This document shows positions 2,474-8,832 of a stretch of DNA of 10,605 bases, piece after piece (position 1 is the first letter of the stretch; each line of letters starts with the position of its first letter). The position numbers were made by a program, and so were the translations under genes. The notes beneath the pieces were generated by a model. It saw nothing but the letters and a program-made list of their open reading frames with translations. It was not told the origin of the DNA and ran no database searches. The stretch is from Candidatus Heimdallarchaeota archaeon (GTDB lineage: Archaea > Asgardarchaeota > Heimdallarchaeia > JABLTI01): positions 1-10,605 of the forward strand of contig DXJV01000093.1 in assembly GCA_019056785.1 (NCBI GenBank), read 5' to 3'.

Positions 2474-2654
2474 GGCTTGCGGGGGTTGATTATGTTTGTA
2501 ATTGTCTTAAGCGTTCTTGAATTTTTTTTCCGGCACTACAGCGAACACTGTTGATTTACTTTGGCTGTTGATTCTAGGGATCATTGGTTTACTTGCTGCC
2601 AGTGTTAGTTTGTTCTTTTTCATTCATTGGCTGCGAAAAAAACCGGCTGCCTAA
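2474..2654 (+). pseudogene. Orphan diverged duplicate of the 3' end of the zinc-ribbon gene (direct repeat of ~473-649)
   Basis: 2532-2654 translates GTTANTVDLLWLLILGIIGLLAASVSLFFFIHWLRKKPAA* versus GATANTDDLIWMLILGIIGLLAAGVSLFFFIRWLRKPAA* at 530-649 (15 mismatches in 120 nt plus one extra codon). Weaker similarity continues upstream across a +1 indel in the T8 run (2522-2529). No 5' half is present. Confidence 0.9.
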
Positions 2655-5020
2655 AAACGACTTCCTTTTTTGTTGGTAGTTGTTTTTTTTCTTTTGAAGA
2701 GTCCAATGGTTACAAGAATGCTTCCTATGGCGGTGCTTATTGCAAATGCTTCGATGATCATTCTTTGTCTCATTCCTTTTCCTATTGGCGCCTCGTTATA
2801 GTGGAGCAGTATTAATCCTTCTAGTTCTGCTGCTAAGTAGATAATATTGTCTTCTACTGTTAGTCCTTTTAAATTCACTCCGTATACTTTTCTTTCTATT
2901 GCTGTTTTTTCACTTATCTGGTAGTACTCTCCTATTTTTTCTGGATACGTTTTCTTTAGGTTGTAGATCATCAATCCTTGTTGGACATCTATCATGTAAA
3001 TGTAGCTGTTTTCGTAAGTGATACTTTCGAGCAGGCTTTTTCCGTTCTTCGTTTTTAGGTAATATACTTTTTCTGTTTTGAGTTCTGCTGGTGCCTTCGT
3101 TACGTTTAACAGTACTTTTTCTAATCTTCCTTCGACAAAGGCTACATAGAGGTTATTCCTCTCTCTTGTTATCGCTGTTATTCTCGCTCCTTCCCAACCT
3201 TCGTAAGCTATTTTTTTTATTTCTGCTCCGTTTGTTGCGTTGAATATTTCCAGCCGGTTTTCTTTTAGTAGGTAGATTATTTTATCTTTTACTTCCAGCC
3301 TTTTTGTTAGTTCCCCTTCGAATTGGTATTCGGCTATTTTTGTCGGCTCCTTTTTTACTTGGCTAATATTTACTATTGTTAGTGTTGAGCTTACTGACAA
3401 GGATATCGAGTGATGATTTGTCAGTAGGTAGAGCCTTTCTCCTTCTATTAGCATTTTTGTATTTGTATATGTGAATGGCTCTACTTTGAGGTTGGTTGCC
3501 AGTTTCACCGGTTTAGCTGGTTCTTTCACATCGTATCGTATCAAGCTGCAAGTTTTCAAGTCTAGTACATAGGCTATGTTCTTATGTACTATCACGTCAT
3601 AATAGAAGTTATTTACTTCGCTGATCCTTGCCAGTCTTTTTGGCTTATAGCTATTGCTAATATCCAGCACTTCTATTCCTCCCTTTCCATTCACTAAGTA
3701 AGCCACTGTCCCTTCCACGAAGGTTTTAAGCGCCCCACTGCCGCTGTATAAAGAGCCTTGCAGTTGGAACTTCTCCGGGTCGCCCTGTGTTTCGACAATT
3801 TTCAGTCCTTGCGAGTCTATGAAATAGAGATGTTCCTCTGTTATAAAGCTCCCCCTAATTCTTGCCCCCTCACATAAGTAGTCTCCCAGCTTTCTCAATT
3901 GTTCTGGCGTGGTGAAATTATAACACTGTATTCCTTGCTCCTCTGTACTCAAGTAAAGGATATTGTTGCTGATGAACGCACCATTTGGGTTATAGCTGAA
4001 GGCGTATTCTTTTTCAAGTATTTCTGGTTGCTCCGGCTCTGTCACGTTTATAATTGAAAGTTTATTATTCGTTAGTACTCCTACATAGTCTTCATTTCCC
4101 ACTAAGAAGGTATTATAGCGTCCATAGACTGTTCCTACAGCCGCTTTTAGTTGTATCTTTTGTATATTCCTTATATCCAGTATTTCACTGTAACCTGTAA
4201 GGTTTACGTACAACAGCAAATCATTTTTCAAGAAGATGAAATGTCCCCCCCAATTACAAAAGCTGGCATCTTGATATTGTCCCGCTATTTCCGGCTTTTT
4301 CGGTTTTGTTATATCGAAAACGATTAGACTGTTGTTGTAATTGCCCACAAACAAATAATCATCCCTACAGGCTATTTGAATGCCACTATTATATCCTAAA
4401 GAAAGAGTTGTGGCTATTTTTGGAGTGCCAGCGATTCTTACATCTATTATGATTATTTCGTCTTGTCCGCTAGACTTGGTGTGGACCATATAAAGAAAGC
4501 CTCTGTGTACTTGCATACTTGAGTACAAGTAGTCGTCCAATGGCAAACAACTTTTAACATAGGGGTTACTTGGTTTTGAGACATCTGCTATTACCAGTGA
4601 GTTATATCTTCCTGGGAAACTTTCAGTAAGCAGATAAGCCATTGTTCTCTCCCCTAGACGTTTCTCTATATATAGCTCGTTTGGGGTGCCGAAATTGCTT
4701 CTATATTCTGACAGCTTTTTGCAATAAAGATTCCTCTCTTTTACCTCATAATGTTTTATCCCCGGCTCCTCCAAGAGCAAACCCCCTTCTACACCGCAAC
4801 ACCCTATGGCACTCGCCTTACCTCTTGCTAAATCACATGTTAGAGTAAATGTTAAGACTAGCAGAATGAACATCTTCTTCAAGAAGAAGCTCTTTTTCCA
4901 GCTCTTCACTCTCTTTCCTCTCCCCTTTTCACCATTGCCTTTTTTCTTTCTGTAGGTGATTGTTTTAGTGCTTTTTTGATAATTTGCTCTTCGCTTGTTT
5001 TGTTCCCCGATCAATCTCAT
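2651..5020 (-). CDS. Large LVIVD-repeat surface protein (probably two propellers), signal peptide and C-terminal anchor
   Basis: Many LVIVD repeats (LVIADVSKPSNP, LIVFDITKPKKP, LSIINVTEPEQP, GIEVLDISNSYKP). Hydrophobic MFILLVLTFTL signal and C-terminal TM plus KRKK. Start uncertain: ATG 5020 (GGGAG upstream), GTG 4909 or ATG 4873. Confidence 0.9.
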   Translation of the reverse strand: MRLIGEQNKRRANYQKSTKTITYRKKKGNGEKGRGKRVKSWKKSFFLKKMFILLVLTFTLTCDLARGKASAIGCCGVEGGLLLEEPGIKHYEVKERNLYCKKLSEYRSNFGTPNELYIEKRLGERTMAYLLTESFPGRYNSLVIADVSKPSNPYVKSCLPLDDYLYSSMQVHRGFLYMVHTKSSGQDEIIIIDVRIAGTPKIATTLSLGYNSGIQIACRDDYLFVGNYNNSLIVFDITKPKKPEIAGQYQDASFCNWGGHFIFLKNDLLLYVNLTGYSEILDIRNIQKIQLKAAVGTVYGRYNTFLVGNEDYVGVLTNNKLSIINVTEPEQPEILEKEYAFSYNPNGAFISNNILYLSTEEQGIQCYNFTTPEQLRKLGDYLCEGARIRGSFITEEHLYFIDSQGLKIVETQGDPEKFQLQGSLYSGSGALKTFVEGTVAYLVNGKGGIEVLDISNSYKPKRLARISEVNNFYYDVIVHKNIAYVLDLKTCSLIRYDVKEPAKPVKLATNLKVEPFTYTNTKMLIEGERLYLLTNHHSISLSVSSTLTIVNISQVKKEPTKIAEYQFEGELTKRLEVKDKIIYLLKENRLEIFNATNGAEIKKIAYEGWEGARITAITRERNNLYVAFVEGRLEKVLLNVTKAPAELKTEKVYYLKTKNGKSLLESITYENSYIYMIDVQQGLMIYNLKKTYPEKIGEYYQISEKTAIERKVYGVNLKGLTVEDNIIYLAAELEGLILLHYNEAPIGKGMRQRMIIEAFAISTAIGSILVTIGLFKRKKTTTNKKGSRF

Positions 5021-5297
5021 CCTTTTACTCCCGTTTTTATCTTTGTGAAGAAAAACATATAAGTTTTACGATATATAGTGCAAGCGACATATTCCCGCCA
5101 AGAAAGCAAAAATCGAAAAAATTGAAGGTGAAACATGATAACACAAAAGGCGACTGTTCTATAGGGAGGAATGATTTGTACATAAAGGGGGGTTACCTCA
5201 AATTTTTAATGACAGGCAGAAACCATAGATAAAAGAGAGTTAGCAAAAAAGGCTTCTATGAGGAAAGGTAGTATTTGCTAACGATTCACTTATTGAT

Positions 5298-5305
5298 TAT
5301 TTAAG
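5298..5305 (+). promoter_or_regulatory. Candidate TATA box for the plsY-like gene
   Basis: TATTTAAG in the divergent intergenic region, 78 nt upstream of ATG 5383. Confidence 0.25.
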
Positions 5306-5382
5306 TAAGAAATAAAAGTAAGGGTAACAAGAGAAGATACTAAAAAATCTTTCCAACAATTTCTAACAATGTGAGAATAGAA

Positions 5383-6093
5383 ATGCTACTAGCAATAAAT
5401 ATCCTTTGGATTATTCTAAGCTGTTTTTGTGCTTACCTTATTGGTGCTATTCCTTTCTCTGTCTGGATTGGGCGTCTTGTTAAAGGGGTAGATGTTCGAG
5501 ACTACAATACCGGCAATCCTGGAGCGATCAATTCCATCAAGACTTTTGGCTTTGGTTTGGGGCTTTTTATCATGCTTCTCGACATTTCCAAGGGTTCTCT
5601 TGTTATATTCCTCATTGATCAGCTTTTTTCTCACTCGTCTTTTATCTCTCAAGATGGTAGTAATCCTTCGTATACTCTCATGTGCCTACTTGGCCCTTTC
5701 TTTGCCATTTTGGGACACAACTATTCTGTTTGGCTGAAATTCAAAGGTGGTCAAGGAATGGGTGTTTTTATGGGTACTCTTCTTTATGTTAATCCATTAA
5801 TTTTCATAGCCTGTGGTTTGCTCATGCTTATTCCCTCCGGCTTGTTTAAGGCATCTGGCAGAGTTTCTGGAGCGACCGGTGTTCTCTCGAGTATTCCCAT
5901 AGCGTTATTTCTACCTCTTGGCCCTCCCTGGTCCGGCGTTCATACTGACTGGCTTTTAGGTTCAGGTGGTTTTGTCCACTTAACCCAAGGCTTCTTAGTT
6001 GCTGCGATGGTTTTAGCTATGTTCTCTTCTTTGCTAATAGTTCTCTTCACAAGGTCACGTAGAGGTTCCACTAATTGGTTTTCAAAAAAATGA
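5383..6093 (+). CDS. plsY: PlsY-family (glycerol-3-phosphate acyltransferase-like) membrane protein with atypical motifs
   Basis: AYLIGAIPF, DVRDYNTGNPGAINS (motif 1), LLDISKG and AILGHNYSVWLKFKGGQG (motif 2), with multiple TM helices. Motif 3 (HxxNxxRL) is absent. Start is ATG 5383 or GTG 5371. Confidence 0.88.
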   Translation: MLLAINILWIILSCFCAYLIGAIPFSVWIGRLVKGVDVRDYNTGNPGAINSIKTFGFGLGLFIMLLDISKGSLVIFLIDQLFSHSSFISQDGSNPSYTLMCLLGPFFAILGHNYSVWLKFKGGQGMGVFMGTLLYVNPLIFIACGLLMLIPSGLFKASGRVSGATGVLSSIPIALFLPLGPPWSGVHTDWLLGSGGFVHLTQGFLVAAMVLAMFSSLLIVLFTRSRRGSTNWFSKK

Positions 6094-6177
6094 GAAAGGT
6101 GAAAGAGCTCTAGAGGAATCACGCCTTTTAAATCTCTTACCTTTCTATTGCTTCTAATTACACAGTGTTTGTGAATT

Positions 6178-7068
6178 TCAGCCAAGCCACTTCTTGTCAA
6201 AGTCACCAATGTAGCTTATGCATATTGCTTTTGGCCCTGTATAGACCCCCATGATTGGGCTTGCTTTTGAAAAGTGAATGTTCACACCATTCTTGTTTTT
6301 TTCTTTCAAAACCTCGAACATTTTTTGTGCCACTTTTTCGTGGTTAATATGGGTAATGAAGATATCATTTGTTTCACAGTGGTCTAATATTTGTGTACAT
6401 AAAGCAGTCATTCCGGCTTCTAAGCCGCTTTCTCCTCTGAAAGCCTTTAAAGAATTGATCGTTCCCTCTTGAAAGTGTACTGTTGGGATAACATTAAAGG
6501 CTGCTCCCATTAGTCGCTTAGCGCCACCAATCCGGCCGCTCTTATAGAGATAGCGCAGATCGTTCATTACAAAAATTGTTCGGACTTGTGAATTAAGCGA
6601 ACGCAATCGCTCCAAGATTTCTTCTTTGTTTTTACCTGCTTTGGCCATTTTTGCTGCTTCTAGCGCCTGGATTCCTGTACCGACCATTGTGTGCTTTGAG
6701 TCAAAGACAGTAATGTCCTTCTCGGGAAATTTCATCCTCGCAACTGTTATCGCTGTTTGGATAATCCCCGACATTGCTGCACTTAAGAAGATGGCAATCA
6801 CTGAATCAGCTTTTTTTAGGGCTTCTTCAAATGCCATGGCAATTTCTCCAGGAGGAGGTAAAGAAGTCCGTGGAAAGTTTTTTTTCGTCACAGTCCTCAG
6901 CTTAGCGCAAAACTCTTCCAGAGAGATCGTACTTTTTTCATTATGCCAGACCCTATATGTCTCTTCACCAAAAAAAAGCCGGTATGGGACAATTGAGAGG
7001 TCATATTCATTAACCATTGTTTGTGAGAGGTCACAAACACCATCTGTTACAATTGCTACCTTTTGCAT
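6178..7068 (-). CDS. degV: DegV/FakB family fatty-acid-binding protein
   Basis: Complete DegV motif set: KVAIVTDGVCDL, PRTSLP, LSAAMSG, VFDSK, LRYLYKSGRI, SPIMGVYTGP. Typical length (296 aa). Confidence 0.95.
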   Translation of the reverse strand: MQKVAIVTDGVCDLSQTMVNEYDLSIVPYRLFFGEETYRVWHNEKSTISLEEFCAKLRTVTKKNFPRTSLPPPGEIAMAFEEALKKADSVIAIFLSAAMSGIIQTAITVARMKFPEKDITVFDSKHTMVGTGIQALEAAKMAKAGKNKEEILERLRSLNSQVRTIFVMNDLRYLYKSGRIGGAKRLMGAAFNVIPTVHFQEGTINSLKAFRGESGLEAGMTALCTQILDHCETNDIFITHINHEKVAQKMFEVLKEKNKNGVNIHFSKASPIMGVYTGPKAICISYIGDFDKKWLG

Positions 7069-7479
7069 AGTTGCGTAAAGCTCCTTATAGTTAGTAATGG
7101 TTGAAAATCAAGCAGAAGCTTGTTACAAATGAGCTTTAGACAACCCCCTATTTATGTCTTGCGAGTTTGTACCTTTAGTAACGCCAATACTCTACAAAAA
7201 ATGGATTGTAATAAAAATGATTTGTGTAACTGATCTTTTATTTGAGACTAACGCTTCCCCCTGTAATCTCTCTTAGCTTTTTCTTTTGAGAAACAAAAGA
7301 TACTTTCGGTTTATCCCAACTATAATTTAGCTTGAAAAAACTTTCAGAGAGAATACTCGTGAGCTTTATTGTGCCAGGTTCATCGATTTCTTGTATAATT
7401 TAGTACCCTACCATAAATTTTATTTTAAAGAAGAGTGTCTCCTTTTCTTATTCAATAAAGAAAAAGCGTTGAATTAAGT

Positions 7480-8832
7480 ATGATGCATAAACTAAGAAAC
7501 TCTACTCTACTTGTTTTTATCTCCCTTTTGATCTTAGGTCAGTTAGGTGCTCCTCTTATGGTTTCTGGTTATGAAATTAGTGACATAACCGTTACTACAA
7601 AATGGACCTTTGATACTGGGACCCAAATTGAAACTTCTCCGGCAATAGGGGATTTATTGGGAGATAGCCACTACGAAATTGTTGTAGCAGATAACTATAA
7701 CAAAACTATTTATTGCCTTGACTATCAAGGAAACTTACTTTGGAATGTCACTCTTCCGAAGATTATCGAGAGCAGTCCTGTTGTCCGGGACATAAATGAA
7801 GACGGGAACAACGAGGTTCTAATTGCGGCAACCGATTTCCTCTGTTATTCGAACCTTGGTGTCTTGCTCTGGAATGTTTCTATCTCGGGTGAAATTTTTA
7901 GAACGGAAGCCGCTGTTGCAGACATTAATAATGATGGTCATGATGAGGTAATTGTTCATACACAAAAATTTGTTTTTTGTTTGGATGGACAAGGCCACCA
8001 GCTTTGGAACTACACAACAACCGGCTCATTACAAGGAACGGCCCTTCTAGTTGATTTAAACAACGATAATCATCTCGAGGTTCTCCTCGGTAATGAGAAT
8101 ACAAATGTCACTTGCTTGAATGATGCCGGCAGCTATGTTTGGCATTATTATTCTAGAAAGTATATTAGTGGTTCAATCCAAGCAGCTGATTTAGGGAATG
8201 ATGGGAAAATTGAAGTCCTTTTTGGTGCGCAAGATACGTTCTTTTGCTTAAATGCTACCGGTTTCCAACAATGGAACTATACTATTCCTTCAACCACTTG
8301 GGGTTTTAGTAAGAGCACTCCAACTATTGGCGATTTGACAAATAATGGAAAGTTTGAGATCCTCATTGGTGATTTAGATGGGTATCTCTATTGTATTGAA
8401 GAGAATGGCTCTCTTCTTTGGCACTATGATTTAGGGAACCTCCTCATAACTCAACCTCGGCTTTACGACTTTAATGCCGATGGTACCTTTGAGATTGTTA
8501 TAACAAACGACCGTCTCCATTTCCTCTATGCTAATGGTACCACAATTAGCGACTATTCGATGTCACCTATTTATTCCGACCCCATCCTTTTTGACTTTGA
8601 TTTGAATGGCAAGGTGGACCTTGTAATTAACTCCTACCCACATTCGACTATCCTAACTGACTTAACTGTCGAAGAAAATACTCCCAGCCCCACTCCCAGC
8701 CCGAGCCCGAGCCCCAGCCCCAGTCCAAGCCCTTCAACCAGCGACACAGGTATAGGTGCTGCTGTTGTTATAGCCTCGCTTATTAGTAGTATGGCTCTAT
8801 TCGTCATCTTACGTAAAAGGAAGTACCTTTAG
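7480..8832 (+). CDS. FG-GAP/VCBS-like beta-propeller surface protein with Ser/Pro linker and C-terminal anchor
   Basis: About 8 repeats of W..I.SSP.(I/V).D(L/I)NxDG..E(V/I)....YCL...G...W with Ca-binding-type DxNxDG loops. Signal peptide, TPSPTPSPSP linker, and TM plus RKRK tail. Confidence 0.9.
   Translation: MMHKLRNSTLLVFISLLILGQLGAPLMVSGYEISDITVTTKWTFDTGTQIETSPAIGDLLGDSHYEIVVADNYNKTIYCLDYQGNLLWNVTLPKIIESSPVVRDINEDGNNEVLIAATDFLCYSNLGVLLWNVSISGEIFRTEAAVADINNDGHDEVIVHTQKFVFCLDGQGHQLWNYTTTGSLQGTALLVDLNNDNHLEVLLGNENTNVTCLNDAGSYVWHYYSRKYISGSIQAADLGNDGKIEVLFGAQDTFFCLNATGFQQWNYTIPSTTWGFSKSTPTIGDLTNNGKFEILIGDLDGYLYCIEENGSLLWHYDLGNLLITQPRLYDFNADGTFEIVITNDRLHFLYANGTTISDYSMSPIYSDPILFDFDLNGKVDLVINSYPHSTILTDLTVEENTPSPTPSPSPSPSPSPSPSTSDTGIGAAVVIASLISSMALFVILRKRKYL
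8680..8736 (+). repeat. Coding hexamer tandem repeat (CCNAGC-type) encoding a (Ser/Thr-Pro)n linker
   Basis: actcccagccccactcccagcccgagcccgagccccagccccagtccaagcccttca translates to TPSPTPSPSPSPSPSPSPS. Confidence 0.9.

Follow-up and report, generated by a model that had tools for sequence, protein, structure and literature searches.

Fatty-acyl ester lipid synthesis in Asgard archaea bears on the origin of bacterial-type membranes in eukaryotes, and surveys of these archaea list the acyltransferases PlsY and PlsC simply as present or absent (PMC6431249, PMC6737245, PMC13400652). On DegV in Asgard archaea we found no literature. The stretch of DNA analyzed here (the window) is an entire 10,605-bp contig (C92) of a Candidatus Heimdallarchaeota archaeon, which carries a gene for a PlsY-like membrane acyltransferase paralog (5383..6093, + strand) and a gene for a DegV/FakB-family fatty-acid-binding protein paralog (6178..7068, − strand). 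Profile matches and inspection of the sequence confirmed that the two genes converge, as reported in the initial annotation, and that their facing stop codons are separated by 84 nucleotides (6094..6177). This locus raises the question whether such a pair scavenges fatty acids for the synthesis of ester lipids, as the initial annotation had suggested, or serves another reaction. Our answer, given with moderate confidence, is that the pair forms a specialized carrier/acyltransferase system that uses acyl-phosphate on an acceptor other than glycerol-3-phosphate (G3P). The host assembly (G000) comprises 2.87 Mb in 102 contigs with 82.5% completeness and an estimated contamination of 4.1%, and the comparison covered 12 genomes of the host family, with 10 sister genomes in the genus.

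The PlsY-like protein matched the Pfam family PF02660 (G3P_acyltransf) with 110.6 bits (E 1.1e-31, gathering cut-off 24.1) and belongs to the same Pfam family as bacterial PlsY (EC 2.3.1.275; PF02660, TIGR00023; Aquifex aeolicus structures 5XJ5-5XJ9, PMC5700162). Its score against the NCBIfam model TIGR00023 was 94.8 bits, which is below the equivalog cut-off of 137.2. An AlphaFold model calculated from a 33-sequence alignment reached a predicted local distance difference test (pLDDT) value of 90.9 and a predicted template modeling (pTM) score of 0.89, and its sole significant matches in the PDB (E<=0.001) were the Aquifex PlsY structures 5xj5-5xj8 (TM 0.72-0.76). The model indicates that the protein has kept the seven-helix membrane fold of bacterial PlsY. 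Residue numbers given below for this protein follow P0001 in alignment A1, the 240-amino-acid form that would start at an in-frame GTG at 5371; for the form starting with the ATG at 5383 (236 amino acids), 4 has to be subtracted. The ATG is the likely start because a 96%-identical homolog (P0006) starts there.

In Aquifex PlsY, the acyl-phosphate site involves His92, the hydroxyl group of Thr41 (which binds the acyl-phosphate carbonyl), the backbone of the Loop3 GGxG and Asn37 for the oxyanion, the phosphate of G3P is clamped by Ser35, Arg45, Lys104, and Asn180, and the 2-OH of G3P is bound by Ser142 and His177 (motif 3, HxxN) (PMC5700162). Mutagenesis of the Aquifex enzyme indicated that S35T exchange leaves 17% of the activity, that R45K exchange abolishes more than 90% of it and raises the Km 14-fold, that alanine at Lys104 or Asn180 costs more than 92% and that His177 tolerates no substitution (PMC5700162). 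Of the acyl-phosphate site, the window protein has kept most elements, with H116 for His92, N49 for Asn37, and G126-G127-x-G129 for the Loop3 GGxG, but has I53 at the position of Thr41. In contrast, the clamp positions are occupied by T47 (Ser35), K57 (Arg45), and Q128 (Lys104), and the corresponding motifs read NTGNPGAINSIK and FKGGQG. In the C-terminal part of the protein no HxxN[IVLM] motif was found; the aligned segment is SSLLIVLF, although the alignment is less certain here than for motifs 1 and 2. With motif 3 absent, there is no equivalent of Asn180. Across the clade of paralogs that lie outside the FakA-DegV-PlsY cassette described below, H116, G126, G127, and G129 do not vary in alignment A1 and N49 hardly does, and beside these residues an extra conserved PPW loop motif has been gained. 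All eight PlsY-family copies of the host genome have Ser35, Arg45, Lys104, Asn180, and His177 replaced, each clade in its own way. When 1.84 billion representative proteins were searched exhaustively with a profile, the subfamily consisted of about eight clusters before the scores merged into canonical PlsY. We read these residues as a sign that the protein has retained its donor chemistry and acts on a different acceptor. Judged from its sequence, the window protein is not a canonical G3P acyltransferase, and all eight PlsY-family genes of the host genome probably do not encode glycerol-phosphate acyltransferases.

One possible role for such a pair would be that of a working FakB combined with a glycerol-phosphate acyltransferase, which would make ester-linked lysophosphatidic acid on either G3P or glycerol-1-phosphate (G1P), using fatty acids that were taken up or made by the cell itself. 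The two proteins are soundly assigned to their families, bacterial PlsY accepts G3P as well as G1P (PMC13400652), and the window exchanges in the clamp are conservative ones (Ser to Thr, Arg to Lys, Lys to Gln). Moreover, the host might supply its own fatty acids, as a ketoacyl-synthase (KS) domain was located at G000:C70:15477-19649 (−) inside a 3,612-amino-acid open reading frame (ORF) that resembles a type I fatty acid synthase or polyketide synthase megasynthase. We nevertheless consider this role quite unlikely, since four mutation-sensitive Aquifex positions are changed at once, motif 3 is missing and the window protein fails TIGR00023, whereas the PlsY of the sister cassette passes it with every residue kept. 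In addition, GpsA, G1PDH, and a confident GlpK were not found in the host assembly. For GpsA nothing scored above the cut-off there, two Fe-ADH_2 matches considered as G1PDH were both generic iron alcohol dehydrogenases, and an FGGY kinase considered as GlpK passed the xylulokinase cut-off and failed that of GlpK. Thus, the ester phospholipid synthesis put forward in the initial annotation is not indicated for this pair, because its PlsY homolog lacks the G3P-binding residues and does not reach the equivalog cut-off. As to the rest of the pathway, PlsX, PlsC, and GGGPS (PcrB) were not found in the host assembly, neither PlsC nor PcrB/GGGPS was found in any of the 12 family genomes, and no G3P source could be assigned with confidence in the host assembly. 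On the archaeal side, a CDP-archaeol synthase (CarS; G000:C100:15080-15571) and a DGGGPS-like UbiA prenyltransferase (G000:C90:31124-31876) are present in the host genome; none of the genes found accounts for the steps with which archaeal lipid synthesis begins.

The DegV protein of the window (296 amino acids, P0002) matched PF02645 with 221.2 bits over positions 1-278 of 280 and TIGR00762 with 238.3 bits, and its score against the FakB1 equivalog (139 bits) was under the cut-off of 350. B. subtilis DegV and S. aureus FakB1 are its best solved relatives and align from end to end. The carboxylate network of FakB1 consists of Thr62, Ser95, Ser171, and His270, with Arg173 as lid, and opening of FakB at the membrane breaks up this network, to which His270 belongs (PMC8892158). 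It can be seen from the alignment that the window protein keeps T68 (Thr62), S96 (Ser95), S177 (Ser171), and R179 (Arg173) and carries Y276 at the position of His270. Like the FakB/DegV proteins of Firmicutes (S. aureus FakB1/FakB2, B. subtilis DegV; PDB 5UTO, 6MH9, 3FYS), it is a full-length DegV family member with these four residues in place; it differs from them in the His270 to Tyr exchange, in the sub-cut-off FakB1 score and in the possession of a dedicated PlsY-like partner gene. The Thr, Ser, and Arg residues of the network are kept in all DegV paralogs. In contrast, the His270 position varies with the clade, being Tyr in 8/8 members of the clade of tight pairs, Phe in clade D and His in the cassette DegVs (clades as defined below). 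Taken together with the rewritten clamp of the PlsY-like protein, this exchange indicates that both partners of the window-type pair have changed clade-specifically at their ligand sites.

Both families are expanded in these genomes. The host genome contains eight genes of the PlsY family, and its DegV matches number about 10, including one gene split into two ORFs. The 12 family genomes carry 4-13 PlsY-family and 6-24 DegV matches each, and the DegV numbers also set them apart from the Firmicutes FakB/DegV systems. The split host gene (G000:C80:26753-27579, −), the two ORFs of which overlap, suggests a frameshift or a pseudogene, and a decayed DegV/PlsY pair with stop codons was seen at G005:C52:56289-57853. 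At G011:C288:5452-6588 (+), two PlsY-family matches fall into a single 511-amino-acid frame, which could be a tandem PlsY-PlsY fusion. For about 27 of the 97 PlsY-family genes of the 12 family genomes, as read from the match tables and the fetched loci, a DegV gene was located at a distance of 1.5 kb or less; a simple density estimate gave an expectation of about 1.6, which corresponds to a roughly 17-fold excess. Five architectures recur among these loci. In architecture A, a FakA-like kinase, DegV, and PlsY form a co-directional cassette (8 of the 10 sister genomes). Architecture B consists of tight convergent pairs with 3-87 nucleotides between the stop codons, and includes the window, contig C93 of the host genome, two tandem pairs in G005, two pairs in G004 and one pair each in G009 and G010. 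In architecture C, DegV and, behind it, a gene with weak similarity to alpha/beta-hydrolases converge on the PlsY-like gene; architecture D has DegV and then PlsY-like in the same direction, 28-30 nucleotides apart; and in architecture E a gene of about 290 amino acids stands between DegV and PlsY-like. Outside this scheme stand two more pairs, one co-directional and one divergent.

When maximum likelihood trees were calculated for the PlsY-family and the DegV members of 26 linked pairs, the two trees agreed clade by clade. The supports (SH-like approximate likelihood ratio test, SH-aLRT; PlsY tree/DegV tree) were 100/100 for the cassette clade A, 99/100 for clade D, 99/100 for clade E, 99/99 for clade C and 98/99 for the tight-pair clade B. 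Within clade B, the subclade of the window, G005a and G004a was supported with 100/95, that of G005b and G004b with 100/99 and that of C93 and G009 with 96/100. A single locus (G005:C70) was re-assorted between the trees. The patristic distances in the two trees were correlated (Mantel r 0.77 overall, 0.64 without the cassettes), and when partners were shuffled within genomes only, which controls for the species tree, the observed value was reached in 0.05% of the trials (p = 0.0005). Moreover, the window and its orthologous loci have nothing but the pair in common, and the flanking genes differ. From the matched trees, the outcome of the shuffles and the unshared flanks it follows that the two genes of the DegV/PlsY-like pair have been passed on, relocated, and duplicated together. 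With dN/dS values of 0.12-0.30, both evolve under purifying selection.

These data also bear on the trivial explanation that the adjacency is meaningless, either because two expanded families became neighbors by chance or because the contig is a bacterial contaminant. The genes do converge from separate putative promoters and contamination of the bin was estimated at about 4%, but a 17-fold excess of adjacency and trees that co-diverge even against shuffles of partners within genomes are difficult to reconcile with chance. As to contamination, the same pair was present in independently assembled sister metagenome-assembled genomes (MAGs), two of them Heimdallarchaeota. The DegV protein matched three loci at 62-72% identity, all of them on contigs of Candidatus Heimdallarchaeota archaeon (isolates CSMAG_1263, 12F4_9). 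In a collection of 5.8 billion proteins, the closest PlsY homologs were labeled Asgard group archaeon (18 close matches with at least 193 bits), whereas the bacterial homologs that followed them scored far lower, at 93 bits at most. The host genome also encodes a eukaryote-type topoisomerase IB, FTR, a PCI/HEAT protein and CarS. On these grounds, the contig is native and archaeal and derives from a Heimdall-group Asgard archaeon, and the explanation by chance or contamination, which we consider very improbable, is already largely refuted. The Asgard-type archaeon suggested in the initial annotation was thereby borne out, and its question of synteny was answered with a conserved adjacency of a pair that is duplicated as a unit. 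Neither a bacterial contig nor an unconserved adjacency combined with the lack of any acyl-phosphate source, each of which would have spoken against that annotation, was encountered outright: the contig is archaeal and the adjacency is conserved.

In 8 of the 10 sister genomes exactly one Dak2 gene was found, and it is always the first gene of the cassette. The encoded FakA-like kinase (313-330 amino acids) contains the Dak2 and the FakA middle domains and matches positions 1-299 of the 530-position YloV model. For S. aureus FakA, it has been reported that the N-terminal and middle domains together (FakA_NL) restore kinase activity (PMC9136124). The cassette PlsY keeps all donor, clamp, and 2-OH residues (GSGNTGFSNVYR, FKGGKG, TSLAN, HRxNI), and that of sister genome G010 passes TIGR00023 with 154.6 bits (cut-off 137.2). 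For these two reasons the cassette copy is the obvious G3P enzyme. The cassette (G010:C6, G009:C47 and others) resembles the window locus in having neighboring genes of these two families, and according to the trees the window pair evidently comes from the same stock. However, in the cassette all genes point the same way and form an operon that includes a kinase gene, its PlsY is canonical and its DegV retains His270; in the window the two genes converge, no kinase gene accompanies them, and the sites of both proteins are altered. At G000:C98:134356-136119 (+), one PlsY-like copy of the host genome (GDGNPGAYNTGR, GGNG) is followed after 10 nucleotides by a gene for a kinase of the APH/choline-kinase fold. 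As an alternative kinase this gene was set aside, as it occurs at one paralog only.

For the evolution and the mechanism of the pair we propose the following scenario. An operon for fatty-acid activation with canonical FakA, DegV, and PlsY would have given rise, within this Heimdall-group genus, to several paralogous units of carrier and acyltransferase, one of which is the window pair. In each unit, the DegV paralog would bind a fatty acid (or a close relative) by its carboxylate, and the single short FakA-like kinase of the genus would phosphorylate the DegV-bound fatty acid to acyl-phosphate. One FakA serving several FakB paralogs per genome is likewise the pattern in bacteria. We infer that the cognate PlsY-like membrane protein would then take acyl-phosphate directly from its carrier into the conserved phosphate hole and pass the acyl group to an acceptor other than G3P. 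Candidate acceptors are another polar alcohol or, in view of the negative PlsC search across the family, a lyso- or other membrane lipid. Channeling from FakB to PlsY has been proposed already, and two bacterial PlsY-DegV fusions have been reported (Li 2017, PMC5700162). These Anaerolineae fusions (UniProt A0A0P6X7I7, A0A0P6XUK7), as cited in Li et al. 2017, resemble our locus in that DegV and PlsY are linked in the genome; they are single bacterial polypeptides, whereas the window has separate, convergent genes. They provide independent genomic evidence for cooperation between a DegV protein and a PlsY.

Several observations weigh against this scenario. The convergent genes have separate upstream regions and are not co-transcribed; this excludes an operon, as the initial annotation had correctly pointed out, but not a functional unit. 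A search for longer PlsY-like forms yielded a TPR fusion and one 599-amino-acid protein only, and no fused DegV-PlsY form was found in the clade, which is weak evidence. The position of Thr41, the hydroxyl of which contacts the acyl-phosphate carbonyl, is occupied by I53 in the window protein, and the conservative character of the exchanges in its clamp (Thr, Lys, Gln) leaves room for a phosphorylated acceptor. A further point concerns the source of acyl-phosphate. The initial annotation had noted that FakA, PlsX, and PlsC are missing from the window, and all three were indeed found neither there nor in the whole assembly; for Dak2/FakA, Pfam Dak2, tblastn, and a hidden Markov model of the genus FakA-like protein were used on this 82.5% complete assembly. 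Likewise, two sister genomes that retain many pairs, with completeness values of 85% and 90%, yielded no Dak2 domain. Since the kinase was found neither in the host assembly nor in these two pair-rich sister genomes, the pairs may work without acyl-phosphate. The genus does have a source of acyl-phosphate, encoded together with DegV and PlsY in one operon, but it was not recovered from the host assembly. Here, an assembly gap is plausible because the whole 20-kb neighborhood of the cassette has no orthologs in the host assembly, and loss is also possible. A complex prediction of the PlsY-like and DegV proteins, each with its alignment, gave a score of 0.00 and is uninformative on binding either way.

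The failure to find the kinase in three genomes of the genus would fit a different function, in which the PlsY-like protein has lost catalysis and the cognate DegV docks on it at the membrane to load, unload, or exchange a lipid for trafficking. Such a role would be in line with the loss of the acceptor site and of Thr41, with the alteration of His270 in the DegV partner, a residue of the network that is disrupted at the membrane opening of FakB (PMC8892158), and with the pair-specific co-evolution, which suggests physical recognition. On the other hand, the (near-)invariance of His92, Asn37, and the GGxG loop in the clade would be difficult to understand if the protein bound no ligand with a phosphate group. 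We know of no example of a non-catalytic PlsY. Taking both sides into account, a mere docking function appears unlikely to us.

If the preferred reading, acyl transfer to an acceptor other than G3P, applies to the many DegV/PlsY-like pairs in general, they might represent a new class of acyl-phosphate-dependent lipid acyltransferases, each equipped with its own fatty-acid carrier, which together with the cassette would build or remodel ester-linked lipids. This extension is tentative, and we regard it as a possibility rather than an expectation. It has to be seen against the background of a family in which neither GGGPS nor PlsC was found in 12 genomes and of a host assembly without a detected G1PDH. 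Under such a reading, the pairs would carry out, for instance, the second acylation (the role of PlsC in bacteria) or the acylation of archaeal-type lipids, and close archaeal relatives of eukaryotes would possess an elaborate fatty-acyl lipid metabolism of their own. Irrespective of this, counts of PlsY presence can mislead: in all eight copies found in the host the acceptor site is rewritten, and the one canonical PlsY of the genus resides in the FakA-DegV-PlsY operon elsewhere. New here is the finding that the PlsY-like genes have duplicated and diverged pair by pair with DegV genes, that both partners show site changes matching each other, and that the canonical cassette lies in sister genomes. 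That every odd PlsY has evolved closely with a DegV of its own provides new genomic support for a direct hand-over from carrier to acyltransferase, and the pair constitutes a small, cloneable two-protein system for seeking a new acceptor.

The PlsY-like gene is preceded by a non-coding region (5021..5382) that is shared divergently with an LVIVD-repeat gene (2651-5020, −), and the DegV gene by a corresponding region (7069..7479) shared divergently with an FG-GAP propeller gene (7480-8832, +). Both regions, taken from the ORF map and the sequence, measure 360-410 nucleotides, represent putative promoters and adjoin a gene for a beta-propeller surface protein. Because of these divergent upstream regions, the PlsY-like gene and the DegV gene each have their own transcription unit. 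In the 84-nucleotide spacer no intrinsic-terminator-like hairpin was found. Scans of positions 5000-7500 for sigma-70 promoters and terminators gave results at or below the shuffled expectation, and such bacterial-type scans are unsuited to an archaeon. Altogether, three large beta-propeller proteins flank the pair (794-2071, −; 2651-5020, −; 7480-8832, +), two of them being LVIVD-repeat paralogs and one an FG-GAP/PQQ-like protein. All three combine a hydrophobic segment at the N-terminus with numerous N-x-S/T sites and a membrane anchor at the C-terminus; in the protein encoded at 7480-8832 the anchor is preceded by a (PS)n linker. The anchored propellers named in the initial annotation are therefore real, but the AOR mentioned alongside them was not confirmed, as no ORF of at least 60 amino acids in the window matched such a family. 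The flanking propellers are not kept beside the pair in other genomes.

Other neighbors were seen at paralogous loci. Two 'choice-of-anchor S' surface proteins lie beside a DegV gene (G000:C75:22157-23110, +) and beside a PlsY-like gene (G000:C95:10633-11517, −); as linked recurrent neighbors they were set aside as probably unrelated, and a second recurrent neighbor family without any family match was set aside as uninformative. A full-length topoisomerase IB of the eukaryotic type with N-terminal, core, and C-terminal domains is encoded 2.4 kb from the second DegV/PlsY-like pair of the host (G000:C93:4762-6606, +). Finally, a protein of 320-334 amino acids with weak alpha/beta-hydrolase similarity and a G-x-C-L-S/C-G-G elbow is encoded between DegV and the PlsY-like gene in four sister genomes, its host copy (G000:C94:27599-28570, +) adjoins the C94 PlsY-like copy, and a related protein of about 290 amino acids occurs in the clade E clusters. 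These hydrolase-like neighbors may hint at lipid remodeling.

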